Shown here: positions 5,976 to 63,568 of the stretch, piece by piece
How positions within the stretch are numbered: the stretch's first letter is position 1
Layout of the letters: every line of letters starts with the position of its first letter
Assembly: GCA_044892525.1 (NCBI GenBank)
Contig: CM097885.1
Location: forward strand, 8,868,001-8,932,000
Length of the DNA: 64,000 nt
Direction: 5' to 3'
Source: Schmidtea polychroa
Taxonomy: Eukaryota
Program-made: the position numbers and the translations under genes
Notes under the pieces: model-generated
Database searches by the model: none
The model's input: only the letters and a program-made list of their open reading frames with translations
Told to the model about the DNA's origin: nothing

Positions 5976-6035
<60 letters not shown>

Positions 6036-12480: not shown

Positions 12481-12972
12481 TACAGAACTCATTTTCATTT
12501 AAAAAATTTAATAAAAAAATCTAATAAATGTAAAAAAATTGCAAATTTTGCAAAAAAAAACAATTAAAATTATTAATAAATCATACAATATGGGTTTCAA
12601 GAATAAAAGTTGTAATAAGTTTTACCCCTCACTCCTTGTGTTCCCTACACTTGGGAAATATTTCATAATAATTTATAATTGAAATTTAATTCAGGACTTT
12701 CAAAACTCTCATGGACAGAGACCCGCTTTCAAAAACGGAAATTTTCCTTGTCCTACGCAAAGGGCCGAGTAAAATTAAAAAAACTTAATTTTTTTCAGTT
12801 TTTTATTTAATATATATTTTTAATATATATTTTATTATCATAAATCTAGCTAGAAAATTTAAAAAGTATTTATTTAACAAATAAAATATTACAGCTAATC
12901 AGATTTACTCATTTTAATTAAATTATTAAATTAATAAAACATTATAGCTATGACTAAAAGTCACCTTTTGGG

Positions 12973-13241
12973 CATTAGCATAACTACGGGGTCGCAGGTC
13001 CCGCAACGGCCCATTTTCAAACCTTAAAAAATGAAATATTTTAAATAATAAATGCACAGCAGAAAGGCCATTTTTGAAACTTAAGTTCATCAAAAATTAT
13101 TTTCGTAATTCGATGGGTCAAGAACGCCTTAGTGGTTTAGCCTTGTTGAGAATTGAAGCCTTACGGGCAAAAGTTATAGATGGTGACCAGCTCATTGACC
13201 GATTTGCAGAGATATAGAGACGTCGCAAAGACTTGTCTTAG
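12973..13241 (+). pseudogene. hAT transposon remnant (dimerisation-domain fragment) adjacent to element B
   Basis: Translates FLKLKFIKNYFRNSMGQERLSGLALLRIEA, a typical hATC motif. hAT-like end CATTAGCATAACTAC at 12973. Confidence 0.7.
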
Positions 13242-13879
13242 AATACTCATCTCTACTCATAGTACTGTACTAAATACAAAATTGTTGTTGATTTATGATT
13301 TGATAACATTTCAGTAACATTTTCATTAATAACAGTAGTAGGATTGGGGCCATCCAGATCAGGGGCCCTCTCGATCACATACCCCTCCCCCCTGGGAAAA
13401 AATTTTTTAGAACGATGCCACATATTTTTAGAACTATTACGTAACCAATGCCTAATATTTTTAGAACTGTTGCGTAATTTTTTTAAATTAAGTGATCTGG
13501 CGGGCTCACATTCTTTTTCATCCCAAAAATTAATGTTCTCGTTAACAAATTTTATTAACCGATACCTCATCTTAAAGCTCAGTCCAAGACCTTTCGAATG
13601 AGTTATAGGTATCTTATATATCTTTAATAGTTTTAATGTTATTAACAATTGATGACCACCATCTTTTCAACGTTAAATTATTATTATTTTCCAAAATATT
13701 ATTAAGTGATCTGGCGGGCTCACACTTGTTTTCATCCCAAAAATTAATGTTCCCATTATCCGAATTTATTGGACGATACCTCATCTTAAAGCTCAGTGCA
13801 AGACCTTTCGAATGAGCTATTGAAGGTATCATCATCATTAATATTAACAAAGAGAATGACTCACCCAATGACTCACCCA

Positions 13880-14245
13880 ACGATGTCTAATATTTTTAGA
13901 ATGATTACGTAATAATTTTTAGAACGATGCCTAATATTTTTAGAACGATGTCTAATATTTTTAGAACGATGCCTAATATTTTTAGAACGATGCCTAATAT
14001 TTTTAGAATGATTACGTCATAATTTTAGAACGATGTCTAATATTTTTAGAACGATGCCTAATATTTTTAGAATGGTGCCTCTTATTTTTAGAACGATGCC
14101 TAATATTTTTAGAACGATGCCTAATATTTTTAGAATGATTACGTAATAATTTTAGAACGATGCCTCATATTTTTAGAACGATGCCTCTTATTTTTAGAAT
14201 GATTACGTCATATTTTTAGAACGATGCCTCTTATTTTTAGAACTA
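13880..14245. repeat. Tandem ~21-23-bp minisatellite (TTTTTAGAACGATGCCTAATA variants) in the left TIR of B
   Basis: Directly visible; mirrored at ~21500-21866. Confidence 0.9.
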
Positions 14246-14672
14246 ATAATTTTGTTTTAATTATCGATTATATAATAATTTAATTTTGTTTAAATCGTTG
14301 ATTATATAATTTGTTTAAATCATTGATTATATAATTTTTTGTTTTAATTATCGAATACGTAATAATATAATTTTGTTTAAATCGTTGATTAAATATTATT
14401 ATTTTTTAATTTTCAATATTTTCTTTTAAAATATTAACGCACGCGTGGAAGTTGTTATTATTATATATAATCTATCCGACAAAATATTCTGTCCCCCTAT
14501 GGGTAATGGTCACAAAGGTACTGCTAAAACTTTAACATATTATTACACACAATGTAGAAAAAATATTATTAGTGTCCACACATGCTACAAGTTAGTATTC
14601 TTATCAATAGCTCATCTTAAAGTCTAGTGTAAGATCTATCTAATGATATATTATTATTATAATTGGTAAAGA

Positions 14673-14790
<118 letters not shown>

Positions 14791-17700
14791 GGTAAAGATA
14801 TTAACACCTGCGCGAAAGATGTTATTATTATTATGATTATTATTATATAATCCGAGTCTATCCGACAAAATATTCTGTCCCCCTATGGGTATTGCTCATA
14901 TGGGTAATGGTCACAAGGGTACTACTTACACTCAACAAGGGTTTTCGATCTTAAAGCATATTATGGTTTATTAGGGTTAGTAAATAAAACTTATCACACA
15001 CACTTTAATATTTAAACGATAAAAATAAAGACAAGAGAGGACAAGGCAAAGTGTATGCATTTAGTATTGCCAGGCCTAATGAGCAGTGACCAAATATCTG
15101 TGCCTGAAAGACACGGTGGATATTTGTTCGCGTCCACAAGGGTCGTCTGTGCCTCCCCCAAGTGGGGTCAGAAGAACCTGGGCATTATAGCTTTCCGTAC
15201 GGAACATTACGCCTAGCATGGGTAGTCAACTACCAGCACATTCGAAACGTATAATTTCAAAATACATGCGTCATTGGCACTATAACCAAATTAATTAATG
15301 TTTTCACTAACACAAATATATATTTACAGAGGCCTCCCACTAGTTGGATTACAACCGCCCACCACGACGATCAGCTTGTAAATATATATTAATTAAGGGA
15401 TAAAGAGGACCCACCCAACCCTATTATATTTAATTTACAAATTTTTCTCGCTCTTCTGCCGGTAATCTATCTCAAAATTATCATCTCCATCGGGCCATTT
15501 GGAATACATCTTGCAAATTGGACGTATTTCTTAGTTTCTGATGCGGCGTCAACTATCATTGCTAAAATTTATATTGATTTAATAGCAATTAACTTACATT
15601 ATCTAGCATTTTATCGTCACAGGCTTGATAAATTAGGCAACTGTTATTTGTGGTATACTTTTTCAATGTCATTTCCCACCATAAAACACAGATACCTAAA
15701 TATAATATATATATTTTAAAGAATTAATTCATGTCTTACATTAATAATAATATTCTTCAGGTAGTACTTTACAATATCTAATTGCTAAAACATCGGTTTT
15801 TCCCATTTTTCTTGACATTCGTTGAAAGTTTACATAATTTAAGTCTGATAATTCATGTTGAAGGACACCCACAATCAGCTAATTCATTTAAGAAATCCAG
15901 AACATAGCAATGTTTCACCATTTTGTCTGGTTCATTTTCTTCTATAATTCATGTTTTAATAAGAAATTTCTAAATCCAGAAGATAAGTCATTTAGTGTTT
16001 CACCATTTTATCTGGTTCATCTTCTTCATAATTATATAAGTCATAATAGAAATATGGTTAGAAATATATATTATAAAGTAACAATTATTTTCTAATTTAA
16101 TTAGATGACCATTAGACGTAATATAATAAACTTCAAAGGGGTTAAAATAAGTGTTAGAATTATTCATTATTGGATTATGGAAGGTCAATGAAAACATACA
16201 GAGAAGTGGCATGGATATATATTAATTGTATTTATTTAAAATTATTTCATAAAATTCATAAATTTCATAAAAATTCATAAAAACGTTCACTTTAATAAAA
16301 AAATATTTAATACAATTTTAAAAGAAATATTTAGTGTAAAATAGTAAATTAAATATAATTGCTAATATTAAAGGACTTAATCAAAATTTAAAATATGAAT
16401 TTATCATAATTACTCTGTCAAATACCCTTCACGGTTTCTTATGTAATAAAATAATCATTTGGGGATTAAATACTTTATTAAATAAAAGTTTATCGCATTA
16501 TTAAAATATTTTAATTCGTGAGTAGCTCATATAATAGAAATAATTTTATTTATATATCCTCATCACTTATAGCCGCCTATTCTCGATTTCCCAATAATTA
16601 TTATCATTTAAATTCTCCGGGCAAATATTTCTTTTAAAATTGTATTAAATATTTTTTTATTAAAGTGAACGTTTTTATGAATTTTTATGAATTTTATGAA
16701 ATAATTTTAAATAAATACAATTAATATATATCCATGCCACTTCTCTGTATGTTTTCATTGACCTTCCATAATCCAATAATGAATAATTCTAACACTTATT
16801 TTAACCCCTTTGAAGTTTATTATAATTTTATGACAGAATAATAAATAATTTCCTCACTTTAATGAAGATTCTTACCACCTGAGAATAATATTGTTAATTT
16901 ATCTCGGTGTTATTAAAATTATCTTTCGACTTTACGCTTCTTAACATTTTAGAATAAGATTTTTTATCAAAATTTGTGTTAATTTGACTGATTCAATTTG
17001 ATGGAGTTATTGTTAATTCGTTTTATTATATATACTCTGAGTTTATCCGACAAGATATTTTCTCCCTCTATGGGTACTGCTCACAATTGGTACTGCTCGT
17101 AAGGGTACTGGTCGTAAAGGTACTGGTGTGTTTTAATGATTTTATTTAGGCAAATTTTTGGTTATTATTTAGCATTAAATTCATTGGTAATTTTTAGAGT
17201 TAGCGGGATTTTACTAACATTATTACTAACCTTTTTGTGAATAATTGAAAGAATATTTTGAAATTTAACGTTTTAGTGTTAATTCTAAGACAAATTTAAT
17301 TAATTTCTTGATAATTTGCTATATTTTATTGACTTGTTTTTAAATTTACTTTTAAATAAAAATTATTTTTAATGACAGTTAGGTTAATAATTAGAGTTTT
17401 TACAATAATCAAGTGATTATTATTTAATTTTTGTAAAAATTATTGTAAAATATACTGAAATTTGTGATTTTGAAAGATATATCACGTTATAATTGCTATA
17501 TAATTAGTTGAATCGATGAAGAATTATGATCAATCAATATATTTCATCTCTAGTTAGGTATTTGATGGTAAATGTGGTGAAATATTTGTAGAAAATATTG
17601 ATTTTAGTGAATTTTGATCTTTTAGTGGGCTCTTACTACATGAATTTAGATACTAAATTATTTCAATGGAAGGATGTCTGTAACAATTAAATAAAATTCA

Positions 17701-48211: not shown

Positions 48212-48492
48212 GCATCTTTAAACAGAGTATGAAACAGGAAATTGTTCGGTATTACATCTGCATTGGCATCCAAAACTTTTCTATCTTTATCTACAACCTT
48301 GATCTGAACAGTCAATAAAGTATCGTTCAAATCTAAATATTCAGTTTGCGAACCAGTAATATAAAACTCTTTATCATTTCTACTATCGGTAATTGAATTC
48401 ATAAGAAAAACTTCCTCAAAAGCCCCAAATTCTATTACAGCCTGGGGCGATGGTCTATCAAATATACATAATTCAGATTTACCACAAATCAT
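48212..48492 (-). CDS. Polinton major capsid protein (double jelly-roll), N-terminal part cut by the gap
   Basis: CGKSELCIFDRPSPQAVIE...EFYITGSQTEYLDLNDTLLTVQIKV matches the conserved KSELxLF...EF.I.G...YLDL start of Polinton MCPs. Confidence 0.85.
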
Positions 48493-48857
48493 TTTGAAAT
48501 ATTAGTTCCATGTCCTTTCATTCGTTTGTTTATACGTGATATTCCATGTCTTTTACGTTTTGGAGCTGGGGCTGGGGATGGAGGCGTATCTTTTTGAAAC
48601 ATACCTGCAACCCCGGGTAGAACCTTCCCTAACTCAGCTAAAGCATTTGTTTTTAGGGATTGTAATATTTTCTGTTCATTCATAATCACGTCTTTAGTAG
48701 TTTTCATGCCAAAACTACCAATACGTTTAAGAATAGGAAGTGCAAATCTCCCTATTGTTTTTAACCAACCTGATCCGTACTGTTTACCAACGAAGTATGG
48801 TAATTCACCGCCAGATTGGCTATCACTATACATACTAATAATATCGGAATTAGCCAT
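48489..48857 (-). CDS. Polinton virion core/membrane-active protein precursor with putative protease sites
   Basis: QSGG and QYGSG motifs, amphipathic GWLKTIGRFALPILKRIG and a basic C-terminus. Lies between the minor and major capsid genes. Confidence 0.7.
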   Translation of the reverse strand: MANSDIISMYSDSQSGGELPYFVGKQYGSGWLKTIGRFALPILKRIGSFGMKTTKDVIMNEQKILQSLKTNALAELGKVLPGVAGMFQKDTPPSPAPAPKRKRHGISRINKRMKGHGTNISK

Positions 48858-49893
48858 CTACTTTACGAAAATGTAATGTCAAATGAGTTTTTGAACCTTT
48901 TGGAAAGTTTATAAGTTTTCCACTATCATCACGAATATTTATTTCTATATTGTTTATACATGAACTTGCTATTGGTAAATACATGGGATTATCGATATTT
49001 ATATTGAAAACTTCATCATGTTCATATCTACCAATCCATACCGATTTCAAAAAAGGAACACTGGAATCACCAACAGTTATGGGTTCGATAATGTTAGTAT
49101 ATATGAACATTTGTTGATGATGTTCTAGTATTATTGGTTTGCGTATACCAGTCGATTTTTCTCGATATTTTTGCCTATCTAATCCAAGTGAATTTGCCAA
49201 ATTTTTATCAAATGTAACTTCGCAAATATCATCATTCAAACTGAAGGTAAACATTAAATCTTTCACAATTTCCAAATTTTTAAATATGTGTGAACAATTG
49301 AACTTTAAATATTTAAGTAAATCATCAAGTTTATCAAAATATAATTCATCAGCAAAGGTAAATGATTCTTCAACTTCATTATTATACGACACAGATATTT
49401 TGATTTCTTCTTTCACTATACTGTTTGCTTCAAATAGATTAAAACGTAATAAATACTCGGTCTCCGTAACAATATTTTTCAACTTATTGCAACCCATTCG
49501 TTTGGCATCTTCAATAGTTTCGAATGTTATTGCAAATGGTTTAAAATCACAACTGATATTTAATCCATCCTTGTAAAACATATAGCAATGAGAATCTAAT
49601 ATTTGATTCGGAATATGATATGTTTTATCATAATTACTGATAACAAAGATACCGCTACATGTTTTCACAATATTCCTTTTGAAATCAATCTTACATTGAC
49701 TCTAAAATGGGAATGTGTTGTACACGAATGTAAAATCTTGCAGTGCAACTTCCCAGTCCCCATTTAAAGAAATCGGATTCTGGAGGTTGACCATGAATTT
49801 GCTGGCTTGATTATCTGGATGAATTAATGGACAACTATTGCTCGGCAAAATAGTATAAAAATTCACTTTATTAGGTCTTTTGCTGATATCCAT
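48850..49893 (-). pseudogene. Polinton minor capsid (penton) protein with one in-frame stop
   Basis: FYTILPSNS...F.VNLQNPISLNGDWEVAL N-terminus and FIYTNIIEP..VGDS.VP.L...P.YLP...I..IEINIRD..G..I.F...T.LTLHFRK C-terminus. TAG at 49702-49704 separates two in-frame ORFs. Confidence 0.88.
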
Positions 49894-50492
49894 GACGGGT
49901 TTTGATAACCATGCCATTTGACATAGTATTGTTTATCCTTGCCGACCTTTTTAGTTAACAATATATTTTTTGAATTCTAAATACTTTTGGGGGAGGAATG
50001 ACTTGTAATTCCTGCTCATAAAATTTCCCTTGTACAATATTATTATCATTATCTTTGATGACATACATTACAGGATTCTGTTTAGTATTTATTTTTGAAA
50101 TTACAAAGACTTCATCACTCCAATTTGTATCAAAATTTTTAATAAATGGTGATGCACTAATTTTACTAATTCTAACATGGTAACCGACTTTATATTTAGG
50201 TTTTGCAATTTTTACAGATTTTTTAGAAGTCAATGATGTTTTTGATGTAATATCAACCGGTCTCAATCCATTCAGTCCTCGATGTGATGAATGATTATAA
50301 CTTGTTAATATTTTCGGTAAAACATTTACCCATTTTTTATTACCTTGATGCACGAACAATTTCTTTAATCTATCTCTCAATGTTCGATTTAATCTTTCAA
50401 CATGGGCAGCTTTTATTGAGAATGTACCGAGTAGTGATTTATTTTCAGTTTATCGAGGATTTGCTTAACTTTGCTATTGTAGAACTCTTTAC
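49863..50492 (-). pseudogene. Polinton retroviral-type integrase, 3' exon (catalytic E region, chromodomain-like tail), frameshifted
   Basis: TTTTAG acceptor, then (G)KEFYN...KAAHVERLNRTLRDRL...SYNHSSHR...YKVGYHVRIS...NWSDEVF...GKFYEQELQ...YYVKWHGY...SWI. Frameshifts near 50418 and 49955. Confidence 0.88.
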
Positions 50493-50984
50493 CTAAAATA
50501 ATAATAAGTAATAAATTTAATAAATCAATATGTGTTTGTCCGAATACAGCCAAGTTGATGGATATTTTATATATTCTCGACAAACCAAAATGGTCAAAGC
50601 ATCCAGGAAAAGGAATATCTCAAAGATTGGAGAATTTAGAAAACAGCTATGAACTATCATTTGTATATATACAAAATATAAAAATTAAATTGATTGATCA
50701 TATTGAAGTTTTCAATAACTCTATTATTGAAAATAAAAAGAATATGAAAATTATTGATAAGAAGCATGATTATTTGTTAAAATAGATTGAATTATTATTA
50801 AGCGAAATTCAAGCAATCAAAGGATCAATAGAATATCTGAAAAGCAATTCAACATTACCAATTTCAAACAATATTGCTGCAAATACTAGTACATCAATAT
50901 TTAGTTTACCTTTGTTAATTTTAAATTATTTAATTGTTTAAATAAATGTATGTTTTTGTTGATTTGTTGATTTGCGAGTTGTTG

Positions 50985-52340: not shown

Positions 52341-52600
52341 ATGAAGAAAAGAGAAAGTGAAATGAAGGGTAGTAAGGGATGTATGAAAGCGAATGGGGTC
52401 ACATTGAAAGATACTGAACTTACTCATCGGTCGTATCTGAATTGTTATAATAATAATGAGATTTATACGGTACTCCAATTTAGAATAACAAGTAAAAACA
52501 ATCAAATTTTTAGTATTAAAAATAATAAGAGGCCTAATGTTGATGATAAGCGCAATTGGGTATTTAAAAATAAAAGTTATGTGTATGGTCATATTATAGG
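52341..52600 (+). pseudogene. Third pPolB C-terminal remnant
   Basis: KANGVTLKDTELTHRSYLNCYNN...RITSKNNQIF...DDKR.WV...SY.YGH aligns with the ends of the other two pPolB copies. Confidence 0.8.
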
Positions 52601-53039
52601 GGATGGTATGGTTATAGCTGATGATTCTGGTGAAGAAATGTTGCTACCTATAGTTGATCGAGATGAAGATTTGTTATATCATCCTCATTTTCCGGTTGTC
52701 AATTATTAAAATTTATGATATAACAAATTTGTTTTTACTCTATTTTTAAACGTTACAAAATTTTTATTTCGTTAGTGTTACTTGTGATAGTACACTATTT
52801 TTAATATCACTAATTATTTTAGTACACATTTTTGCAATACATCTGCAACACATCTGAAAACTATGAATGACTCACATACAAAGGTCAATTATTCACACAC
52901 GCAATATACATGCAGTAATTTGATTAGTTATACACAAGTATAAAATAGAAGTGAATTGGCATGATAGTCTTTATTTTTAAAATGCAATCCTAGAAGAACG
53001 CTTTTGGTGAGAAAACATTTTCTAATTTATTGAAAAAAA

Positions 53040-53260
53040 CAAGTCCAATTAAGAACATAACTGAGACGAAGCCTGTCAAGAATGATGTGAAACCAGTACA
53101 AATGTATCATAACCATAAGATATATTTCTTGGTAGATGAAATTCCATATAAATTCTCAAATACAGTCAAATTTATCAAGAAGCAAAATATTCAAATTTCA
53201 TAGCTCATATAACAAAAGAAGATGTTGCTGTAAATATAGTGTTGGGGAAAATCAATAAGA
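53040..53260 (+). pseudogene. Decayed homolog of ORF 59854-60264
   Basis: VKPVQMYHNHKIYFLVDEI versus VQPVQMFHNYKMYFLKEEI; TATAAAA upstream at ~52939. Confidence 0.65.
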
Positions 53261-53895
53261 ATCAATAAGTTGCAATAGAAATAAATCCCCAACAATCGAA
53301 ATTCCCGTTTTAATAATTTTAATTTGCACTTTCTAATTAAAAACTATTTTCAATTAAATTTCTCAACAATAGTAGGTGGTTTGGGCACCGGGAAAACAGG
53401 ACTCCGGGAGCACAGTACCCCCCCCCCCCCCCCGGGGGAAAAAATTAAAAAAAATTTTTTTTTCAAGGTCAACTTGAGAACAAAGACAATGAGTCATCCG
53501 ATGACTCATCACTCGTCTAGAACAAAGACAATGACTCATCCGATGACTCATAAAAAATTATTATTATTTTTCAAAAATATTATTATCTGTGCTCGCGGAG
53601 TTCTACTTTTCGTCAGCCCAAAACTTAGTCTAAATCTCAAAATATTTTAACAATTTATAGTTCATTTTGAAGACCAGACGAAGACAAATCTTTTGAGCCA
53701 TATAAATAATTTTTATCATTAGTAGTATAAAAGTTATTAATTTTTTAGTCAGACACTAATTTATAGCAAATTTATAGCAAATTTTATGAAGAAATTTGCG
53801 GGTGATTTATCATTCACCCAATCAGGTAAGACTTTAATTTTATGAAGAAATTTGCGGGTGATTTATCATTCACCCAATCAGGTAAGACTTAAATG

Positions 53896-53942
<47 letters not shown>

Positions 53943-53967
53943 AAAGTTTTAACAAGTTTTAACAAAG

Positions 53968-54057
<90 letters not shown>

Positions 54058-54858
54058 CTGTTGTTATTGACTTTGAGAATAACTGACAATATACAAAGAA
54101 ATTAAAAAAATAAGAATAAATTAAAAAGTAATAATTAGAATAATATAGAAAAAAATTTTAAAAAATAGGGTTTGAAAATCAAAATTGACACATTTATTGA
54201 AATATTTAAATAGCATATATAAGTAGTTATTGGAGGCTTTATTTAAAATATTTTCAAATATTTTATTAGGCTTCTAGAAGCTAATTATAGAAGCTGTAAA
54301 AAATTTAAAAATTTTAGTTTGTGTCATTTTGAAATTTTAAATGTAAAAATTATAAAAAAATTTTAAAAGTTTTTAGTAAAACAATTCATTATATTTACAA
54401 CCAATGAGAATTAAGAGAAAGGAAATAAAAGAAAGATTGAAGGGTATTTTGAAGAAGAACATTGCTAAATTCCAGGAGATTGACAAGGACTATCGTATAG
54501 TCGAAAATTCTTTCATTAAATACATTATTTGCAGCAAAAGGCTTAAATTATCATTTTATTGTTATTATTATTATAAGAGAGATGTAGTTGCATGCTGACT
54601 GCAAACTACTGTTACAAATTATTTTCTCGTATACCAAATATAAAAATGAAAACATTACAAGTTTTCAAAAATAATAATTTTTACCAATAATATCATTTTA
54701 TGCTGAAACATTTTCGATAAATTTATATGAAAATATAATGTTTAAACATAGAAAGAATTGTGAAAACTATAACGAGTTTTCAATAAAATATATACATTAT
54801 AAAAGAATACAAATCAATAAAAACATTTTTTTTTTAAAAGATATATTAATATATCACA

Positions 54859-56889
<2,031 letters not shown>

Positions 56890-57274
56890 CTAAATCTGTT
56901 TGCAAGTTATTAGGATGTCCATCTTTAAATAAAATATTAATTGCCTTGGACATTTCTTCTGCAGATTTTGCCTTGACTGGTATTGCTCGTGCAAACCTGC
57001 TGTATACATTAATACATGTTAAAATATATTTATTCCCATTGTTAATTTTCGAATAAGGTATCATCATCAAATCCATTTGCCATAAATCGTCAATACCAAA
57101 TGTTTTATACGCTCTTGTTGGAAATCTTTTCCGCATTGGTTTGTTCAAACTGTACGCAAGCTGATCTGATAACCACTTCTGGGTTTCTTTTTTCGAATTC
57201 GGAACTCTTTTCTTTAATTTTGCCACTCCACCGAAACCGGCTTCGTCTTCTGGGTTCTTCCAAATCTTCTCCAT
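56890..57274 (-). CDS. Polinton integrase, 5' exon only
   Basis: MEKIWKNP...GFGG...WLSDQLAYSLNKP...LWQMDL...KYILTCINVYSRFARAIPVK...LQTDL(G). Donor G|GTATT at 56889 is followed by (TAT)n. Confidence 0.9.
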
Positions 57275-57332
57275 TACAACAAGAAGATTTAAAATTAAAT
57301 TTAATGTCGGGCAATGAAGGATTAGCACCCAT
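57105..57332 (-). CDS. Putative myristoylated small protein overlapping the integrase 5' end
   Basis: MGANPS fits MGxxxS, followed by CC and an RRRSRFR patch. The ATG lies 3 nt after the stop of the preceding gene. Confidence 0.5.
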   Translation of the reverse strand: MGANPSLPDIKFNFKSSCCNGEDLEEPRRRSRFRWSGKIKEKSSEFEKRNPEVVIRSACVQFEQTNAEKISNKSV

Positions 57333-57335
57333 TGT

Positions 57336-57602
57336 TTATGACTGTGTAACTCCACCTAATAATGATAATGCCAGAGGTATCAATGCACCAATAAATCCAC
57401 CTTGTTGTTTATATATAATTTTCCTCATTTGCTTACGATTTTTATTATTTACTAATGATAACAAAGGTTTCCTATGTTTGCTCAATAAATGCTTTTTTGA
57501 TTTACTGATTTTAATTTTGCCTTTGACTACTTTAAGTATAATATTGAGTAAATCATCGACAACAAAATTTGGGAATGATTGCAATATATTCATTCTTTTC
57601 AT
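57336..57602 (-). CDS. Adenovirus pX-like core protein precursor
   Basis: Basic body, then QQGG-FIGALIPLALSLLGG, resembling the adenoviral pX cleavage site and hydrophobic tail. ATGA overlap with the upstream ORF. Confidence 0.75.
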   Translation of the reverse strand: MKRMNILQSFPNFVVDDLLNIILKVVKGKIKISKSKKHLLSKHRKPLLSLVNNKNRKQMRKIIYKQQGGFIGALIPLALSLLGGVTQS

Positions 57603-57871
57603 ACTCGGGCCTTTAACAATGCATTAAAAAATGGAAAACTGCGATGATTTTTAACTACTTTTTTACCGGTTTTACGGGTTTTACGGGTTTGACGTTTAGG
57701 TTTAGGATTTTTCGAAATAAGATTCATTGCAGAGAAATTTTCAGTTACAAGTTTTTTAGATGGTGTATAACTAGTTGTTGGTGGAACTTTTGGAACTTTT
57801 GGAACTTTAATACTCTTTCTAATACTTTTTCTTAATTTCCTAATATTTTTCACCCTTGCTTTTAGAAACAT
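57599..57871 (-). CDS. Lys/Arg-rich basic protein, putative DNA-condensing core protein
   Basis: Very basic 90 aa with PKV and TRK repeats; tightly packed between the ATPase and the pX-like gene. Confidence 0.6.
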   Translation of the reverse strand: MFLKARVKNIRKLRKSIRKSIKVPKVPKVPPTTSYTPSKKLVTENFSAMNLISKNPKPKRQTRKTRKTGKKVVKNHRSFPFFNALLKARV

Positions 57872-57889
57872 TATTATTCATAGAGGTTT

Positions 57890-58516
57890 TCAACTTTGTT
57901 TATAAACCATGGCACCTTTTGGGTTGAAAATATCTGTTTTTACTCGTAAATCATCGGGACATTGTTGCGTGAAATCAAGAAATATATATCCATGAGGTAT
58001 TTTTGTAGCATCTTGAAATGCACTGATAAGAAAATTACGATTGTTAGGGTATGCTTGATGTGCAAGAAAATCAATCACTGTTGCATCTCTAGGATTCTTG
58101 AAAATAACTAAATATTGTACATTTAAATTACGTGTTCGATGTGCCCCACCTTGATGAAATAGATTTTGTGTTATGAAAATAACTGTTACACCGACATGTC
58201 TGCTGATCTTTGTAAATAAATTATTAAAATCTTTTTCTTTATTAGCTTCTTGATACAGATCATCAATAATAATGACATCACCTTTCTTTAATCGGCTGGA
58301 CCAGTTTTTATCGAATCCCTTTACTATTTTCATGTTTTTTATTTCACAGAAACTTGATTGAGTTAATCCATGTTCTTCATCAGCACCCCTATGCCAATAA
58401 ATCCTGTTGAATTTTGATTTGAATAAATTTGATTTTAGTAATTTACAAACAAATAATGTTTTTCCACTACCACTCGGACCAACGATTTGGTATACTGCAT
58501 CATTTCTTAATTCCAT
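57890..58516 (-). CDS. FtsK/A32-like genome-packaging ATPase
   Basis: Walker A GPSGSGKT, Walker B IIIDDL, SRH.GVTVIFITQNLF, RTRNLN.QY...FKNPRD, PHGY...D. Confidence 0.95.
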   Translation of the reverse strand: MELRNDAVYQIVGPSGSGKTLFVCKLLKSNLFKSKFNRIYWHRGADEEHGLTQSSFCEIKNMKIVKGFDKNWSSRLKKGDVIIIDDLYQEANKEKDFNNLFTKISRHVGVTVIFITQNLFHQGGAHRTRNLNVQYLVIFKNPRDATVIDFLAHQAYPNNRNFLISAFQDATKIPHGYIFLDFTQQCPDDLRVKTDIFNPKGAMVYKQS

Positions 58517-58615
58517 TTCAAAAATTTTATAAATGTGTATTTGTTTATATTCAATGATTTAATGAACTCGTGCTCAATTTGTATATAAAGAATAATTTTC
58601 ATAAATGATTTAATA

Positions 58616-59053
58616 ATGTTAGCAAATATAAATTATCGAGGAAATTTTGATGTATCGAATATGAGGTTCCCACCAGGGAAACCCCAGCAAATTATCGATA
58701 GAAGCGGGAAATATCCGATAATATTTTTCAAGACTGGTAAATGTAGAATCATGGGATGTAAGAAACCTTTGGATATTAATAAATTACAATATCGAATAAA
58801 TAATATTATAATCCAATCAATTACCGTTACTATGGATATGGGACATAGTATCAATTTATATAACATGTCGAAAAAATGTGATTGTATGTTTGAACCGGAA
58901 TTGTTTCCGGCACTAAGACTATTAAAATATAACCCTATATGTGTCAACGTGTTTGCTAGTGGAAAGGTTGTCATGCTGGGGTTGAGAAATTTGGAGTATA
59001 GAGAATTTGTTGACAATGTTCGAAATGAGATAATTTCATTGGTCGATTTCTAA
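58616..59053 (+). CDS. TATA-binding-protein (TBP)-like protein
   Basis: Two TBP-type repeats: IIFFKTGKCRIMGCK, IIIQSITVTMDMGHSINL, FEPELFPAL, VNVFASGKVVMLG. Divergent from the ATPase gene, with TATATAAAG at 58582. Confidence 0.9.
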   Translation: MLANINYRGNFDVSNMRFPPGKPQQIIDRSGKYPIIFFKTGKCRIMGCKKPLDINKLQYRINNIIIQSITVTMDMGHSINLYNMSKKCDCMFEPELFPALRLLKYNPICVNVFASGKVVMLGLRNLEYREFVDNVRNEIISLVDF

Positions 59054-59127
59054 TTGGTTAATTTCTAATTGGTTATTGATTGATTTAAACAAACGGTTTT
59101 TTGTTTAGGATTCATTTATTCAACACT

Positions 59128-59542
59128 ATGTACAAATTACCAAGCGCAGCAAACCTCATGAAAGATATCGACGATTATGGTAAATTTAAAATTTTTATTT
59201 TGACATTTTTTTTTTATTATTTTAGAAAAATATTTAGAAGTTATGCTCAATAGGATAAAATATTATTATCCTCAAATTGCGGAAATAATCAAGGACAGAG
59301 ATCCAGAAATCGTTCCAGATTTGATTTTTTATTCAACCCAAATTAGAATCATGGAGGTATTCCATCAATTCTTATGGGATATTAAGATCAACAGAACCAT
59401 GAAGCAAATGGAGCCAGAGTACCAGTGCATCATCGGATGTTCATGTTGTGCCGATCGATATCGGCGATATGTCGAATGGGAGTTCGTGAAAACTCTGAGA
59501 AGGTTTCACTACTCCCGGATTGTTGATTTAGGATATGAATAA
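59128..59542 (+). CDS. Two-exon hypothetical protein with a C-x3-C-x-CC motif
   Basis: Exon 1 59128-59179, 46-nt GT-AG intron 59180-59225, exon 2 in frame with ORF 59243-59542; AATAAA at the stop. Confidence 0.7.
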
Positions 59543-59782
59543 ATGTATTTAATGTTTCAATTGTGTTTTTTTTTTTTTATATTTAAAATAGTAATAATTA
59601 TAATAATAATAATAGAAATAGTAATAATAATAATAGAAATAGTAATAATAATAATAATAATAATAGAAATAATAGTAATAGTAATAATATAAATAGTAAT
59701 AATAATAATAATAAAACATTAATAGAACATAAATGCAACATCAATGCATTTTGAATGCAATTTAAACAAAGACATGCTATAA

Positions 59783-59820
59783 TCTGATTGGTTGATAGGC
59801 ATGAGTCAAAGGTATAAAAA
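59783..59820 (+). promoter_or_regulatory. Compact Pol II promoter: inverted CCAAT, AP-1 site, TATA box
   Basis: CTGATTGGTT...ATGAGTCA...TATAAAA, with the TATA box ~40 nt upstream of the ATG at 59854. Confidence 0.65.
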
Positions 59821-59853
59821 CCCTGTAACATTTAAATTTATTCATTATTCACG

Positions 59854-60264
59854 ATGACCAAGAAAATTTCAAGCACCGAAAAACCTAAAGAAATGGTACA
59901 ACCAGTTCAAATGTTCCACAACTACAAAATGTATTTTTTGAAAGAAGAAATCAATATGAAATTGGTTGCACCAGTCAAGCTAATTCCAACTAAATTTCAA
60001 TTCTTATCCGGCACGCTTTCAATGATTGATGTCAAAACTATTGATGATGTTTTTAAACGGATAGATTCGAATCTATCGTGTAATCAACATGCATGGTTCA
60101 ACAATAGATATGTAAGATTTTATGATGCTTTCGATGAAATCAGTTTCAAAGAAAATGAAAATTGGTATATAACAATTGCAATCCAGGGATATAAAGTTGA
60201 TAATAATGATGTATATTCTCCTATTTGGAAAATTATGTCTGCTAGACTTTCACAAATATTTTAA
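59854..60264 (+). CDS. Hypothetical protein conserved among these elements, possibly an OB-fold ssDNA-binding protein
   Basis: Clean ORF with promoter and AATAAA; homologous remnant at 53040-53260. Aromatic, beta-rich C-terminus. The fold is speculative. Confidence 0.7.
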   Translation: MTKKISSTEKPKEMVQPVQMFHNYKMYFLKEEINMKLVAPVKLIPTKFQFLSGTLSMIDVKTIDDVFKRIDSNLSCNQHAWFNNRYVRFYDAFDEISFKENENWYITIAIQGYKVDNNDVYSPIWKIMSARLSQIF

Positions 60265-60391
60265 TGTTATATTTAATAAATGTATTAGTCAGATTTGTTT
60301 TTTCTCTTTATTAATTGCAACATAAATGCAAATGACATGCAAATTTAACAAAGAAAATCTATAAACAAACTTATAATATAGTTTTAAAGTG

Positions 60392-60768
60392 ATGAAAATG
60401 ACTGCAGAAAAAGGTTAACATGATTAATTAATTACCGAATTATTTATTATTTAGAATTTGTAATCAACTTTTTGTTGGAAAAGTTAGCAGAAATAGCTGG
60501 TGTGAAAATTGAGGACATATTATCTGTTACAAATGCATTAAATATCGGCTGGGTAGTTGAGAGTCAAGATACAGGATTTGATGATCAGGAAGAAGAAACT
60601 CAAGAAACTGATACTCAAGAAATTGATGAGGAAATATATGAACCTATAGATGAACCTATAGAGGAACCTAAAGATGAACCTAAAGATAATATTACGAATG
60701 ATTGTATTGATCATGTCGTTGAAAATATAATGAAATGCGGAGATGACGACTGCGAATGTGTTAATTAA
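60392..60768 (+). CDS. Two-exon acidic hypothetical protein
   Basis: Exon 1 60392-60413, 41-nt GT-AG intron 60414-60454, exon 2 in frame with ORF 60472-60768. D/E-rich with EPxD repeats. Confidence 0.65.
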
Positions 60769-60845
60769 TAAATCTTAGTTAGTTAGTGTTTGTAAATTTA
60801 TTCAAAATTTTATTTAAAAACGAAACAAAATAACTATATTAATTT

Positions 60846-61360
60846 TTATTTAAAAAATCGCGATAAAGCATACAAAATAGCAACACCTGTTGCAAGTTTT
60901 ACATAGTTTTTAAATTTTCTTTTCTGATGATCTATTTCCTTCGCATTTCTGGCGAGTTGATTCAGTACGCCCCATCTGCCATTGGCTTCAATCCATGGTT
61001 GAAACTTTGACTTGATTATCTAGAAAATATATATTAATAAAATATAGATTATAAAAGTATTACTTCTTGAGACCACTGATAATAATGTTCAGAGTCCCAT
61101 AAACTTCTTTCGATTATGATCTTCATATAAGCAAACCCTACTAGTATTCGGGTCCACTTCATCTCATCATCGCATAGACAGTTAAAAATCCTATGAAAAT
61201 AGAATTTTTTCGTTTCGAGGCAATCGCTATTGAGCATATCTTCATAATCAATATGATTTCCTTCTATAATCTTTTCGGTCCGATCGACCAGGAAACTGAG
61301 GCTTTCCATAATCTTCTTGTTGATAAGTTCGCTTAAAAGATTTTCCATAAAATGAGACAT
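60846..61360 (-). CDS. Bcl-2 family protein (156 aa, two exons)
   Basis: Exon 1 61360-61064, 44-nt intron 61063-61020, exon 2 61019-60846. BH1-like FHRIFNCLCDDEMKWTRILVGFAY, BH2-like FQPWIEANGRW, tail anchor YVKLATGVAILYALSRFFK*. Confidence 0.85.
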
Positions 61361-61487
61361 TTCTACAATAATTTAAAATATGATGTTTTATTTATACTAA
61401 TACCGTATGATTTTGATTGGTTGATAGACTATAAATGTAAAAGAAAGGTTTTGATTTGATACACCATGAAATCTATATTCATATTGC

Positions 61488-61572
<85 letters not shown>

Positions 61573-61604
61573 CTTTATAATAATAATCCAATGTGAATTT
61601 GTTT

Positions 61605-62113
<509 letters not shown>

Positions 62114-63568
62114 CATTTAAGTCTTACCTGATTGGGTGAATGATAAATCACCCGCAAATTTCTTCATAAAATTAAAGTCTTACCTGATTGGGTGAATGAT
62201 AAATCACCCGCAAATTTCTTCATAAAATTTGCTATAAATTTGCTATAAATTAGTGTCTGACTAAAAAATTAATAACTTTTATACTACTAATGATAAAAAT
62301 TATTTATATGGCTCAAAAGATTTGTCTTCGTCTGGTCTTCAAAATGAACTATAAATTGTTAAAATATTTTGAGATTTAGACTAAGTTTTGGGCTGACGAA
62401 AAGTAGGACTCCGCGAGCACAGTTAATAATATTTTTGAAAAATAATAATAATTTTGTATGAGTCATCGGATGAGTCATTGTCTTTGTTCTAGACGAGTGA
62501 TGAGTCATCGGATGACTCATTGTCTTTGTTCTCAAGTTGACCTTGAATAAAAATTTTTTTTTAATTTTTTCCGCCCGGGGGGGGGGGGGGTACTGTGCTC
62601 CCGGAGTCCTGTTTTCTCGGTGCCCAAACCACCTACTAACAATAATTTTGTTATTTTCAAATTTCGATTTAAATAATTTTTGAAAAATATTTAATTATTT
62701 TTCAAGAATTTTGAAAAGAAAATTACAAATAAATAAGAAATACACTGAAAAATTACCAATAATCAAATATCAATTTTATCTACATCAAAAAACATTTTAA
62801 ATATTGAATTTTTAAAAGTAAGAAGAAATAATTATTATTTATAATTATGATGAAAAATTTGAAATATTTTATTAATTTCATAATGAAATATTTAATTGAT
62901 TTATTTTCATAATTATTGGTTAGAAACTTATTTGAATAAGACAAAATATTTGCTTTTTTAACATTTTCACAGATATTAATATTTTATTGATTTATTTATT
63001 TTACTACAAATTTTCATTATCCCGATTGACTTATTTTAATTATTTCTTAAAATTCTTGATACAAGATTTAGATTAAATCTTCTGAGTGAATTATATTCTA
63101 ATATTTGGATCAGTGAAATATCCTTATCCAATTATGGATCATTCCCAATATTTATAACCATAACGAGATCATTAGATCAAATGCCAAAACCCCACAATTT
63201 CTGAATACATTAGCGTTACCCAATAAAATTTCATTCAAATATTAAACAATTATTCTTTAAAAAATGAATGAAATTTTTTTGTTTATTTTGTTAAAAAGTA
63301 TTTGAAATAACAATATTGATTTAATTTGAATTTCCGTTTAAAAATGTTATTTAAATTTCCATCAAAATTTTACTTTTTGTTATCAAATTTTAATTTAAAA
63401 TATTTTGTAAGATTTAAAATAAATAAAAAAAATAAATAGTAACATTAATTTCGAATTTCGCTCAAAGCTAAAATACAATATTTATATATTGTTTGTTTAT
63501 CTACATTAAAATACAAATTATAAATATTGAAATTGTAAAAGTCAGAAGTAATAATTAATATAATAAGT

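Follow-up and report, generated by a model that had tools for sequence, protein, structure and literature searches.

The 145-aa ORF at 58616..59053 (+) raises the question of why a virus-like mobile element should carry a TATA-binding protein (TBP) of its own, and to what end it might use it. To our knowledge, almost nothing is known about gene control in Mavericks/Polintons, the integrated virus-like elements of animals and protists. A first-pass annotation of the window, i.e. the whole stretch of 64,000 nucleotides that was analysed, had proposed a Polinton/Maverick encoding its own TBP homolog: the TBP and the Maverick identity both stand, whereas the copy contained in the window is internally deleted and does not represent a complete Maverick.

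The mini-TBP gene and its predicted fold

The ORF is intact, running from ATG to TAA as first described, and is matched by the Pfam TBP family (PF00352) in 2 stretches, with an E-value of 6.8e-15 and a score of 55.1 bits, against a cut-off of 22.9. Both TBP repeats, recognized in the first-pass annotation by the strings FFKTGKCRIMG and FEPELFPAL...VFASGKVVMLG, are present in the translation. Comparison with PDB sequences, performed by using phmmer, returned 35 TBP chains, with E-values between 1e-9 and 3e-5, and one chance match (E 1.2). On the basis of Pfam, phmmer, alignment, model and tree, the product, here called mini-TBP, is described as a TBP homolog having a helix-less first repeat and a whole second repeat.

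The TBP fold, which the annotation had left to structure prediction, is supported in this way: the AlphaFold (AF2) model reached a pLDDT of 95.6 and a pTM of 0.83, and all of the 44 PDB entries matched by Foldseek at E<=1e-3 are TBPs (TMq 0.67-0.79, about 170 columns). The model aligns to whole TBPs, with the saddle predicted to be kept and half of the upper surface predicted to be missing. The second repeat aligns end to end with solved TBPs, stirrup and both intercalating Phe included. Repeat 1 is modelled as four strands with no helices, only strands being found across residues 1-60, and hhalign places a gap of 12-13 residues where helix H2 of this repeat would be; the shortening of the first repeat and the lack of its YNPKRF loop had been correctly noted.

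The role of the intercalating Phe residues of TBP is known from TBP-DNA crystal structures. Three of the four positions are kept in mini-TBP, as originally read, and the residues involved (F38, F97 and F113) are invariant in 56 aligned family sequences; the missing one, the first of repeat 1, corresponds to P23/Q24. A total of 15 columns are invariant across the 56 sequences, E93 and E95 being found among them, together with the three Phe. FEPELFPAL aligns to YEPELFPGL or YEPEQFPGL of solved TBPs, with the acidic stirrup residues present; in TBP, the acidic residues of the C-terminal stirrup contact TFIIB. Ser68 and Leu121 stand at positions occupied by Asn and Thr, respectively, in archaeal and microsporidian TBPs, and Met46, at the matching position of the first half, stands at one occupied by Thr in the aligned TBPs. 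Because of these three changes, and of the missing intercalating Phe, DNA binding by mini-TBP could be weak or altered.

The element in the window and its full-length relative

The gene lies within an element extending from 53371 (5'-AGTAGG) to 62637 (CCTACT-3'), bounded by inverted repeats (TIRs) of about 630 nt, 96% alike. The left arm (53371..54000) begins with 5'-AGTAGGTGG and the right arm (62010..62637) ends with CCACCTACT-3'; blastn of 53370-54000 against 62638-62010 produced an alignment of 632 nt at 96%, containing a 523-nt core at 99%. An identical hexamer, AACAAT, directly flanks the two termini, at 53365..53370 and 62638..62643, in agreement with the TSD-bounded element of the earlier description.

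The genes to the left of mini-TBP are on the minus strand. A PolB fragment (54859..56742; Pfam DNA_pol_B_2, PF03175, E 2.2e-20) aligns at 54% with the PolB of L013 (829 aa), over residues 237-829 of the latter. It is separated by an (AAT)n microsatellite (56786..56890), producing poly-N/poly-I translations, from the N-terminal part only, about residues 11-140, of an rve integrase (56888..57274; Pfam rve, E 3e-6; tblastn to the integrases of L013 and L008); the microsatellite marks the junction of the internal deletion, and the similarity to full-length copies begins at 56786. Two overlapping small ORFs of 88 and 90 aa (57336..57871) correspond to a single 175-aa ORF of the full-length copy, and their downstream part is kept in 9 related loci. 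The following gene, intact, encodes an A32/FtsK-type genome-packaging ATPase of 208 aa (57890..58516; Pfam Pox_A32, E 4.2e-7). As claimed at first pass, it is arranged head-to-head with the mini-TBP gene, across a divergent promoter spacer of 99 bp (58517..58615). Within the spacer, TATAAACA (58542-58549, minus strand) precedes the ATG of the ATPase by 33 nt, and TATATAAAG (58582-58590, plus strand) that of the TBP gene by 34 nt.

Beyond the mini-TBP gene, the plus strand carries a 99-aa ORF (59243..59542), for which no Pfam family was found above cut-off and which has a 96-aa counterpart at the same position in the full-length copy, and a conserved accessory ORF of 136 aa (59854..60264), preceded by a canonical TATA box (GGTATAAAAACC) and a GATTGG box. 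Of 81 related loci, 20 have a homolog of the latter beside the TBP gene; searches returned for it no Pfam family, and no PDB sequence match at E<=5. A weakly Bcl-2-like ORF of 103 aa is found on the minus strand at 61049..61360 (Pfam Bcl-2, E 0.014, below the gathering score); its copy in L123 reaches an E-value of 2.2e-4, also below the gathering score. Capsid and protease genes are absent, and integrase and PolB are truncated: the window element is an internally deleted, non-autonomous Maverick/Polinton derivative.

A second, separate and differently deleted copy of the same Maverick family is located at 48212..50951 (-), as established by tblastn and by blastn to the full-length copy (96.4% and 92.9%). 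It contains the C-terminal part of the integrase, a 357-aa gene, a 122-aa gene, the start of the capsid gene and the sub-terminal region; no TBP and no ATPase were found in it.

The full-length comparison was made with one copy of about 17 kb, present elsewhere in the genome, which measures about 17.0 kb between its outer ends and has TIR arms of 640 nt, 98.9% alike. In addition to what is found in the window copy, it features a full integrase, a double-jelly-roll (DJR) capsid protein, an adenain-type protease and pPolB, the PolB region (12640-15808) being read in three frames. The integrases of L056, L065 and L013 match rve, with E-values from 1e-12 to 4e-15, and that of L123 (386 aa) matches rve and chromo, both below gathering scores. 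Weak Adeno_IVa2 matches were obtained for the packaging ATPases of L056 and L065, and a Peptidase_C5 match for a 155-aa ORF of L123 (E 4.8e-6, 26.8 bits against a cut-off of 21.3). The 407-aa capsid protein of the full-length copy was modelled with a pLDDT of 72.3; 137 BFVD entries match the model at E<=1e-3, including capsid proteins of NCLDVs, virophages, adomaviruses and MELD viruses, and an Atlas lead points to DJR-like clusters; no penton protein distinct from it was recognised. RNA polymerase genes were not found in the full-length copy or in three related metagenomic genomes. With pPolB, integrase, ATPase, protease, DJR capsid, TIRs and a 6-bp TSD, these elements are real Mavericks, and the view that a Polinton/Maverick encodes, in mini-TBP, a true protein of the TBP fold is supported.

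Family, neighbouring genes and promoter motif

At least 150 intact copies of the mini-TBP gene are present in this genome, 99-100% identical. Since they are so similar, intactness within this genome alone proves little; moreover, the copies were ranked by protein score, which makes the sample biased, and host-copy pairs with dN near 0 were, for this reason, not used alone as evidence of selection. The same genome also contains 4 divergent intact alleles, of 145, 154, 156 and 170 aa, belonging to different subfamilies. Among metagenome sequences, 108 of the 116 candidates are relatives of mini-TBP at E<=1e-3, and all 108 carry PF00352; an exhaustive library contained 683 matches at E<=1e-3, 111 of them at E<=1e-10. 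The family is a deep one, with identities of 35-63%. The dN/dS ratio, proposed as a check in the first-pass annotation, was calculated for 18 pairs of metagenome loci with dS>=0.1 and falls between 0.10 and 0.45, very close pairs being left out as noisy (1.14 at dS 0.022, 1.00 at dS 0.011). The nucleotide differences between the window ORF and a 91%-identical subfamily copy are all synonymous (6 out of 6). Taken as a whole, the substitution pattern indicates that the mini-TBP family is under purifying selection.

That the ORF might be a near-identical copy of the host TBP had also been considered at first. Host TBP-like genes are 23-34% identical to mini-TBP and form a separate clade, with 100/99 support, in a tree built on the mini-TBP family and the host TBP paralogs; recent capture of a host TBP was rejected on these grounds. 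Searching IMG/VR with the TBP alignment gave 32 pattern matches, one of them a relative; this is a canonical TBP, scoring 91 bits and encoded on a contig of 44.7 kb, and was rejected as a member of the mini-TBP family.

In metagenome loci, relatives of mini-TBP usually adjoin the ATPase and the integrase, and copies beside the ATPase in sister elements, as the annotation had envisaged, are indeed found. A co-directional ATPase gene lies within 1500 nt in 16 of the 26 loci having at least 1500 nt downstream, and at 1525 nt in a 17th; none is found downstream in 9 of the 26. The head-to-head arrangement seen in the window recurs in two metagenome loci. The ATPase homologs next to TBP genes in the metagenome loci are 35-76% identical.

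Of 24 related loci, 22 have the motif YATAAAC between -90 and -8 from the start of the ATPase and two do not, the background being about 0.04 per such interval; in the same interval from the TBP start, it is found in only 1 of 68 loci. Integrase and capsid genes are also preceded by YATAAAC(A). Within five long contigs, 35 of the 74 occurrences fall in upstream intervals covering about 4% of both strands, and 62 of the 74 are on the gene strand, with none upstream of the TBP gene (0/5) or of PolB (0/5). The motif is carried by 32 of the 70 genes of these contigs, and many putative late genes have no motif upstream. The same split is observed in the host element copies. Regions upstream of TBP genes contain TATAWAW in 34 of 68 loci, often along with CCAAT/GATTGG. 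What is new here is this distribution: ATPase, integrase and capsid genes are preceded by YATAAAC(A), the TBP gene by ordinary TATA/CCAAT sequences. Such a layout in two classes lends indirect support to the suggestion of the first-pass annotation that host Pol II may be redirected to late promoters of capsid and packaging genes, and the motif conserved at the starts of neighbouring genes is an indirect hint that mini-TBP may bind a TATA-type element sequence-specifically in the minor groove.

The motif contains a TATAAA core in the window subgroup; in the L056/L065 subgroup it reads CATAAAC, which is no TATA box, yet is conserved at the same genes. Overall, it is not over-represented, 11 occurrences being found versus 19 expected in the AT-rich window, and 10 versus 14 in the full-length host copy. 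No relatives were found among 101 pattern matches when IMG/VR was searched with the ATPase alignment.

Possible roles and comparison with known systems

We favour, at about an even chance, the reading that mini-TBP belongs to the conserved gene set of one Maverick/Polinton (adintovirus-like) clade and, at the same time, acts as a functional minimal TBP of the element, an initiation factor for an element-specific promoter class producing an early-to-late switch. Mini-TBP probably helps to switch on packaging and capsid genes. The TBP gene would be transcribed by host Pol II from its ordinary CCAAT/TATA promoter, alongside further accessory genes, the Bcl-2-like and 136-aa ORFs among them. The TBP product would bind the YATAAAC(A) class of core promoters, found some 15-75 nt ahead of the genes for ATPase, integrase, capsid and the small structural module, and, by way of the conserved C-terminal stirrup, would seed a pre-initiation complex containing host TFIIB and Pol II. 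Lacking helix H2 of repeat 1 as well as the N-terminal stirrup, mini-TBP would escape host factors acting on those surfaces; the remodelled N-terminal half would lie opposite the 3' half of the promoter box, in which the C at position 7 sets the motif apart from TATAWAWR. The net effect would be a switch from early to late genes, by analogy with the TBP mimic of beta- and gamma-herpesviruses. Several points speak against this reading: the motif is missing at 2 of the 24 ATPase genes and at many putative late genes, and is not enriched overall; 9 of the 26 loci have no co-directional ATPase downstream; the changed residues could weaken or alter DNA binding; and the motif could be read by a host FOX factor or, through its TATAAA core, be bound by host TBP.

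A bolder version, put forward tentatively and at somewhat less than an even chance, is that of a Maverick clade of animal genomes with its own two-tier Pol II programme: host TBP would fire the 'early' promoters of CCAAT/TATA type, that of the mini-TBP gene among them, and mini-TBP would be the sequence-specific factor for an orthogonal YATAAACA code on packaging, integration and capsid genes, its N-terminal half reading the non-canonical 3' half of the box. If true, this would represent an independent invention of the herpesvirus-type late switch based on TBP, in the smallest known TBP, and could explain the rise of one family to thousands of copies.

Other roles can be envisaged. Mini-TBP could be a general TBP substitute, binding any TATA-like box of the element and raising or insulating its transcription (e.g. 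from limiting host TBP, or from regulators needing the missing H2 surface), with no new specificity. We consider this unlikely, although the C-terminal repeat and the stirrup are conserved, both promoter classes are TATA-like and the motif of the window subgroup contains a TATAAA core. YATAAACA would then be read by a host factor, possibly of the FOX type, since ATAAACA fits the forkhead consensus, RYAAAYA. A generic TATA reader does not account for CATAAAC being kept at the same genes; the central DNA-facing residues differ from those of canonical TBPs, which argues for changed rather than generic recognition, and the strict exclusion of the motif from the promoter of the TBP gene (1/68) suggests two regulatory tiers. 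Quite unlikely, in our opinion, is a decoy or dominant-negative role, in which mini-TBP would sequester TFIIB or Brf-type factors, or block host TATA boxes, damping transcription of the host or of competing elements. A TBP able to bind TFIIB or DNA and unable to dock other partners could act as an inhibitor, and mini-TBP keeps the acidic stirrup (E93 and E95 invariant) and, in the model, lacks the whole upper surface of repeat 1; a pure decoy, however, leaves unexplained the conservation of three intercalating Phe and of concave-face residues, as well as a dedicated promoter motif conserved on the neighbouring genes. In addition, a global inhibitor expressed from thousands of genomic copies would presumably be costly to the host, and hence to a vertically inherited element.

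The linkage to the packaging ATPase and the integrase, close and ancient as it is, would also fit a non-transcriptional DNA bender, whose saddle would serve packaging, integration or the architecture of replication origins or terminal repeats, and TBP-like folds are known to have other nucleic-acid functions in other proteins. This role appears improbable: the TFIIB-contacting stirrup sequence, irrelevant for packaging, is kept, and adjacency alone is weak evidence, since these compact genomes conserve gene order for most genes. The TBP gene is, moreover, inverted relative to the ATPase in the window and in two other loci, so that co-transcription of the two is not required. Finally, it is scarcely credible that the ORF is an inert passenger, i.e. 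a captured fragment of host TBP, intact merely through the youth of its copies. The large number of near-identical genomic copies is in line with this, but the depth of the family and its dN/dS values, the four divergent intact alleles in different subfamilies of one genome and the separate position of the host paralogs in the tree all speak against it.

Returning to mini-TBP as the initiation factor of the element, the gene and the conserved promoter motif together provide a concrete, testable model, opposing an early, host-type class of promoters to a late, element-type one. With the saddle and the TFIIB stirrup kept and half of the regulatory upper surface gone in the model, mini-TBP would be a natural minimal TBP, and could help to find out on which surfaces of TBP promoter recognition and initiation depend. 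Motif and gene could together serve as markers by which this Maverick clade is found, and classified, in genomic and metagenomic data.

The idea of a Maverick-encoded TBP is not wholly unreported, since Starrett et al. 2021 (PMC8502044) use the gene label 'TBP' in the legend of their Fig. 5, where it refers to MELD viruses whose PolB is adintovirus-like. As in the case of mini-TBP, it is a TBP-like gene in a Polinton-related midsize dsDNA virus; it is a figure label only, however, referring to non-animal datasets, and section 3.4 of that paper does not, in its text, go into architecture, distribution, synteny or promoters. The text of one supplement file of the same paper, and of one of the 2024 PNAS paper on DJR viruses, does not mention TBP, TATA or TFIID.

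Cellular TBP, a subunit of TFIID, TFIIIB and SL1 with an archaeal counterpart, belongs to the same Pfam family as mini-TBP and has the saddle fold predicted for the latter; the second repeat is shared over its whole length, with the [FY]EPELFP stirrup and the two intercalating Phe. Mini-TBP differs in its length (145 aa, with no N-terminal tail), in its sequence (21-25% identity), in a repeat 1 with no helices, no YNPKRF-type stirrup and one of two Phe, and in being encoded by a mobile element, in a clade separate from host TBP-like genes. TRF2/TLF and other TBP paralogs are divergent and direct Pol II to alternative promoter classes, but they are host genes with both repeats complete, whereas mini-TBP is an element gene with a reduced repeat 1; TRF2 has lost the TATA-contacting Phe residues, whereas mini-TBP keeps three.

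Virus-encoded TBP folds are also known from NCLDVs, where they serve cytoplasmic or viral transcription machineries. The homologs found in BFVD (e.g. those of mimivirus, marseillevirus and phaeovirus, and of asfarvirus B263R) match the mini-TBP model with E-values from 1e-8 to 1e-3. They are, however, 186-608 aa long, with full repeats and extra domains, and only 7-20% identical to mini-TBP, so that these matches are structural only and no close sequence relationship to giant-virus TBPs was found; mini-TBP, on the other hand, belongs to a nuclear integrating element of 17 kb, in which RNA polymerase genes were not detected.

The late-gene TBP mimic of beta- and gamma-herpesviruses (EBV BcRF1, KSHV ORF24, HCMV UL87) reads a non-canonical TATA variant on late promoters. 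These proteins are large and multi-domain, with a barely recognisable TBP-like core, and have no sequence relationship to mini-TBP; BcRF1 (577 aa) is matched by Foldseek with an E-value of 2e-2. They nonetheless appear to offer the closest functional analogy to mini-TBP: according to two reports (PMC7498053, PMC13345323), the herpesvirus TBP-like protein recruits host Pol II.

The mini-TBP and its predicted fold

An intact ORF of 145 aa (window 58616-59053, + strand) lies inside a Maverick/Polinton element and is, almost beyond doubt, a Maverick-encoded homolog of the TATA-binding protein (TBP), here called mini-TBP. As described in a first-pass annotation made from the sequence alone, it diverges over a 99-bp spacer from a Pox_A32-type packaging ATPase of 208 aa (57890-58516, - strand). 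The ORF matches the Pfam TBP family (PF00352) in two stretches, with an E-value of 6.8e-15 and 55.1 bits (cut-off 22.9). A phmmer search of the PDB returned 35 archaeal, microsporidian, plant, yeast and human TBP chains (E-values from 1e-9 to 3e-5), the sole other match being a chance one (E 1.2); good alignment is confined to residues about 61-131, corresponding to the second repeat.

The structure was modelled by AlphaFold2, using a 56-sequence family alignment as input (mean pLDDT 95.6, pTM 0.83). Compared to the PDB by Foldseek, the model produced 44 matches at E<=1e-3, all of them TBPs, with alignments of about 170 columns, TMq values of 0.67-0.79 and identities of 20-25%. The second half is modelled as a full repeat, composed of S1' (62-74), H1' (81-85), three strands, S5' (117-123) and H2' (129-142), while residues 1-60 form four strands (2-10, 25-28, 35-38, 42-48) and no helix. 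In profile-profile alignments with two host TBP-like proteins, i.e. proteins from non-Maverick TBP loci of the same genome, residues 26-50 correspond to strands S3-S5 of repeat 1, and are followed by a gap of 12-13 residues opposite helix H2 of both proteins. Model and alignment both bear out the shortened first repeat reported at first pass.

Family-invariant columns include F38, E93, E95, F97 and F113. Alignment to solved TBPs identifies FEPELFPAL as the C-terminal stirrup and F97 and F113 as the intercalating pair of repeat 2; F38 is the counterpart of the second Phe of repeat 1, and the first Phe position falls on the invariant P23 or the adjacent Q24. Three of the four intercalating Phe are therefore kept, as had been claimed. 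Ser68 and Leu121 occupy Asn and Thr positions of the aligned archaeal and microsporidian TBPs, Met46 being the equivalent position in the first half. Since these are the central minor-groove contacts of TBP-DNA crystal structures, DNA recognition by the mini-TBP is likely altered, not simply retained.

Defective and full-length copies of the element

The inverted repeats of the element start at 53371 (5'-AGTAGGTGG) and end at 62637, with arms of about 630 nt, 96% alike, and the hexamer AACAAT is found at both flanks; the 6-bp TSD and the AG...CT termini are consistent with a Polinton/Maverick insertion. The TSD-bounded Polinton initially proposed is thus supported by its ends and by a full-length relative, but the 9.3-kb window copy itself is defective. 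Its integrase breaks off near residue 140, against an (AAT)n microsatellite (56786-56890) whose other side adjoins a PolB fragment, the counterpart of residues 237-829 in a related polymerase of 829 aa; a small gene, elsewhere a single 175-aa ORF, is split over two frames, and capsid and protease genes are missing. A locus about 330 kb upstream on the same chromosome (L126, G000:C1:8590269-8600268) is 99.76% identical to window 53022-63021 over 10 kb; since the likeness extends into the flanks outside the TSD, it represents a segmental duplication, not a separate insertion. A second Maverick copy in the window (48212-50951, - strand) has a different internal deletion, and lacks both TBP and ATPase: its sub-terminal region is fused directly to the C-terminal part of the integrase, the 357-aa and 122-aa genes and the start of the capsid gene. 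Isolated fragments resembling the Maverick PolB C-terminus occur at 6349-6981 (-) and 52362-52592 (+), with 53-56% and 33-38% identity to the L013 and L008 polymerases. A 274-aa ORF at 2322-3146 (+), with DDE_3 transposase and HTH/paired-box-like domains, is a Tc1/mariner-type transposase.

The full-length architecture is described from one copy in the same genome (L123+L133), with 640-nt TIRs, 98.9% identical, whose outer ends are about 17.0 kb apart. The gene order is: a 167-aa ORF, a Bcl-2-like ORF, 137-aa and 96-aa accessory ORFs and, on the - strand, TBP, followed (+ strand) by the ATPase, the 175-aa ORF, a 386-aa integrase, 357-aa and 122-aa proteins, a 407-aa protein, a 155-aa ORF and pPolB. 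The integrase has rve and chromo matches, both sub-threshold; the 155-aa ORF has a Peptidase_C5 match above cut-off, and pPolB is spread over three frames. The model of the 407-aa protein (pLDDT 72.3; 137 BFVD matches at E<=1e-3) resembles double-jelly-roll capsid proteins of NCLDVs, virophages, adomaviruses and a MELD virus. By its gene content and TIRs the element family therefore conforms to a Maverick in every testable respect. The best BFVD match of the capsid protein, in structure and in sequence, is R9XLG5 (25% identity, E 2.5e-23), an uncharacterised protein annotated in the Cotesia sesamiae Mombasa bracovirus genome. A separate penton protein was not found in the Maverick family; the 357-aa-type structural-module gene is possibly the penton. 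In L013, two adjacent paralogous ORFs of about 340-350 aa (5616-6671 and 6671-7684) both match this single gene of the host element, and represent a tandem duplication. The Bcl-2-like ORF shows weak matches, below the gathering score, both in the window (61049-61360, -; E 0.014) and in the full-length copy (L123:1502-1816, +; E 2.2e-4); Bcl2 homologs are reported in adintoviruses in the article of Starrett et al. 2021 (PMC8502044).

The genome is 781 Mb long, in 1012 contigs, the four sampled ones being 93-272 Mb. A search with the mini-TBP ORF gave 4165 first-look candidates: the best 150, which were scored, are all full length, 99-100% identical and stop-free, but, as they represent the top of a protein-score ranking, their intactness alone does not demonstrate selection. 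Between the window and the full-length copy, 91% identical, 6 of 438 bases of the TBP ORF differ, all synonymous. A Pfam-TBP search revealed about six host TBP-like loci and many more repeated ORFs, five of which were sampled and belong to further Maverick subfamilies, with distinct intact TBP alleles of 154, 156 and 170 aa. In the 170-aa-allele subfamily (L128, L130, L132) the ATPase-integrase block is 94% identical to that of the window up to 58550, inside the spacer, and a different TBP allele follows; 58550 thus looks like a recombination breakpoint, suggesting modular exchange at the ATPase-TBP promoter spacer. Besides the canonical TBP locus (C1:244962231), three single-exon host ORFs with two TBP repeats, of 215, 212 and 166 aa (C2:182637078-182637596, C1:195751380-195751880 and C2:132285308-132285757), are divergent host paralogs. 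Two runs (X4, X5) contain contigs with parts of the ATPase-TBP stretch, at 90-99% likeness; since they carry a second organism label ("organism B"), a related element may occur in another species.

Conservation of the mini-TBP in a Maverick clade

In a clustered protein database 108 of 116 candidates are related to the mini-TBP at E<=1e-3; they are 96-232 aa long, 37-98% identical, and all contain PF00352. An exhaustive 50%-representative library yielded 683 matches at E<=1e-3, 111 of them at E<=1e-10. In JGI metagenomes a relative is encoded in 170 stretches, and 80 loci were kept; IMG/VR gave one distant match only, a canonical TBP on a 44.7-kb contig.

A maximum likelihood tree of 61 rows separates, with support 100/99, a 49-row group, including all mini-TBP rows and seven longer library representatives, from a 12-row group, which contains the three host TBP-like genes used and the IMG/VR TBP. 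The four Maverick TBP alleles of the host genome group with metagenomic members in a single clade of 13 rows (support 100/97). A recent origin by host capture, for which a near-identical host TBP copy absent from sister elements would be expected, is rejected: the ORF is 23-34% identical to host TBP-like genes, groups separately from them, and is present family-wide. Nei-Gojobori dN/dS ranges between 0.10 and 0.45 (median near 0.19) in 18 non-independent pairs of metagenome loci with dS>=0.1, and is about 1 in two very close pairs (dS<=0.022). The reading as an inert passenger is excluded; the mini-TBP is a conserved, selected TBP-fold protein, which keeps the DNA-facing Phe residues and the stirrup.

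By tblastn with the window proteins, ATPase was found in 27, integrase in 18, PolB in 8, an 88-aa gene in 9 and the 136-aa accessory ORF (window 59854-60264, +) in 20 of 81 related loci, many contigs being 1-3 kb long only. Five ATPase queries were used to evaluate linkage in the 26 loci with at least 1500 nt downstream of the TBP gene: a co-directional ATPase lies within 1500 nt in 16, and at 1525 nt in one more; none is seen downstream in 9, including the unrelated IMG/VR contig. Two metagenomic loci, L012 and L047, show the head-to-head arrangement of the window. The metagenomic genomes L056, L065 and L013 are compact and lack introns; besides TBP and ATPase, their genes include pPolB, a parvovirus-type PLA2, a C2H2 protein, an rve+chromo integrase and capsid-sized ORFs. 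From this synteny and gene content, the TBP gene is part of the conserved gene complement of a deep clade of Mavericks, whose ATPases are 35-76% identical. Among these relatives, the phospholipase A2 domain (E about 7e-11), a ubiquitin-conjugating enzyme domain, a KilA-N protein and C2H2 and RING finger proteins were also seen (L056:3994-4395, L065:9086-9484; L013:222-716; L065:7142-7999).

A TATA-variant motif and the possible role of the mini-TBP

A result beyond the first-pass finding is a promoter motif, [T/C]ATAAAC(A), hereafter YATAAAC(A), seen to recur on reading the upstream regions of related loci. In five long contigs, 35 of 74 occurrences fall at -90 to -8 of ORF starts, windows which, counting both strands, amount to about 4% of the sequence; of the 74, 62 share the strand of the gene, and 32 of 70 genes have the motif upstream. 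It precedes the ATPase in 4/5, the integrase in 3/5 and the capsid-protein gene in 4/5 contigs, and TBP and PolB in none of the five. Among loci with a usable start, 22 of 24 ATPase genes have it upstream, the background probability of one or more matches per window being about 0.04, as against 1 of 68 TBP genes. It is tied to the ATPase start in both gene orientations, lying at -35 in L012 and L047. The AT-rich window shows no overall enrichment (11 found vs 19 expected), yet 6 of the 11 fall within the two Maverick fragments, on the strand of their genes.

The host element repeats this pattern: TATAAACA or CATAAACA lies upstream of five genes, namely the ATPase (at -33 in the window), the 175-aa and 122-aa genes, the integrase and the capsid gene, and the 357-aa gene has the variant GATAAACA upstream. 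The TBP gene has TATATAAAG at -34; GGTATAAAAACC is found before the 136/137-aa ORF and GTATAAATAAAAC before the Bcl-2-like ORF, whose promoter is a canonical TATA one, and CCAAT/GATTGG boxes are close to these three promoters. Metagenomic TBP-gene upstream regions contain TATAWAW in 34 of 68 cases, often accompanied by CCAAT and, close to the start, by a TCAT(T/A)AT element. The genes next to that of the mini-TBP carry a TATA-variant motif that is conserved, oriented and promoter-proximal, and is missing from the mini-TBP gene itself.

We propose, giving it an even chance of being correct, that the mini-TBP gene would be an early gene under host TBP, and that its product would nucleate initiation on the packaging, integration and capsid genes, at their YATAAACA promoters, where the conserved stirrup would bring in host TFIIB and Pol II; without the upper surface of repeat 1, the product may escape host regulators. 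In TBP, the 3' half of the box is covered by the N-terminal half of the protein; this is where YATAAACA departs from TATAWAWR, and would match the remodelled half of the mini-TBP. In the main rival reading, the mini-TBP has no particular sequence preference of its own, and YATAAACA is read by a host factor; ATAAACA matches the forkhead consensus, which speaks for it. Possible roles are also those of a decoy, or of a non-transcriptional DNA-bending protein. Under the proposed initiation at YATAAACA, this candidate cognate promoter code makes mini-TBP function directly testable.

The finding is real, and its first reading was largely right. Virus-encoded TBP homologs are known from giant viruses. 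In BFVD the mini-TBP has 27 matches at E<=1e-3; those named are giant-virus, asfarvirus-like, ascovirus or iridovirus proteins, at 7-20% identity, and none of the 27 carries a Polinton, virophage or adintovirus label. The one relevant item found in the literature is a "TBP" gene label in the Fig. 5 legend of Starrett et al. 2021 (PMC8502044), for MELD viruses with adintovirus-like PolB; one supplement file of that article does not mention TBP. A paper on Cymbomonas mentions TBP genes, but assigns them to mirusvirus-like elements and not to Polinton-like ones. In the freely available full texts searched, neither a conserved Maverick mini-TBP, nor its helix-less architecture, nor a YATAAACA promoter class is described. 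The nearest functional analogy is the late-gene TBP mimic of herpesviruses; among virus-encoded TBPs, the mini-TBP is distinct in its minimal architecture and its clade-wide conservation in Mavericks.
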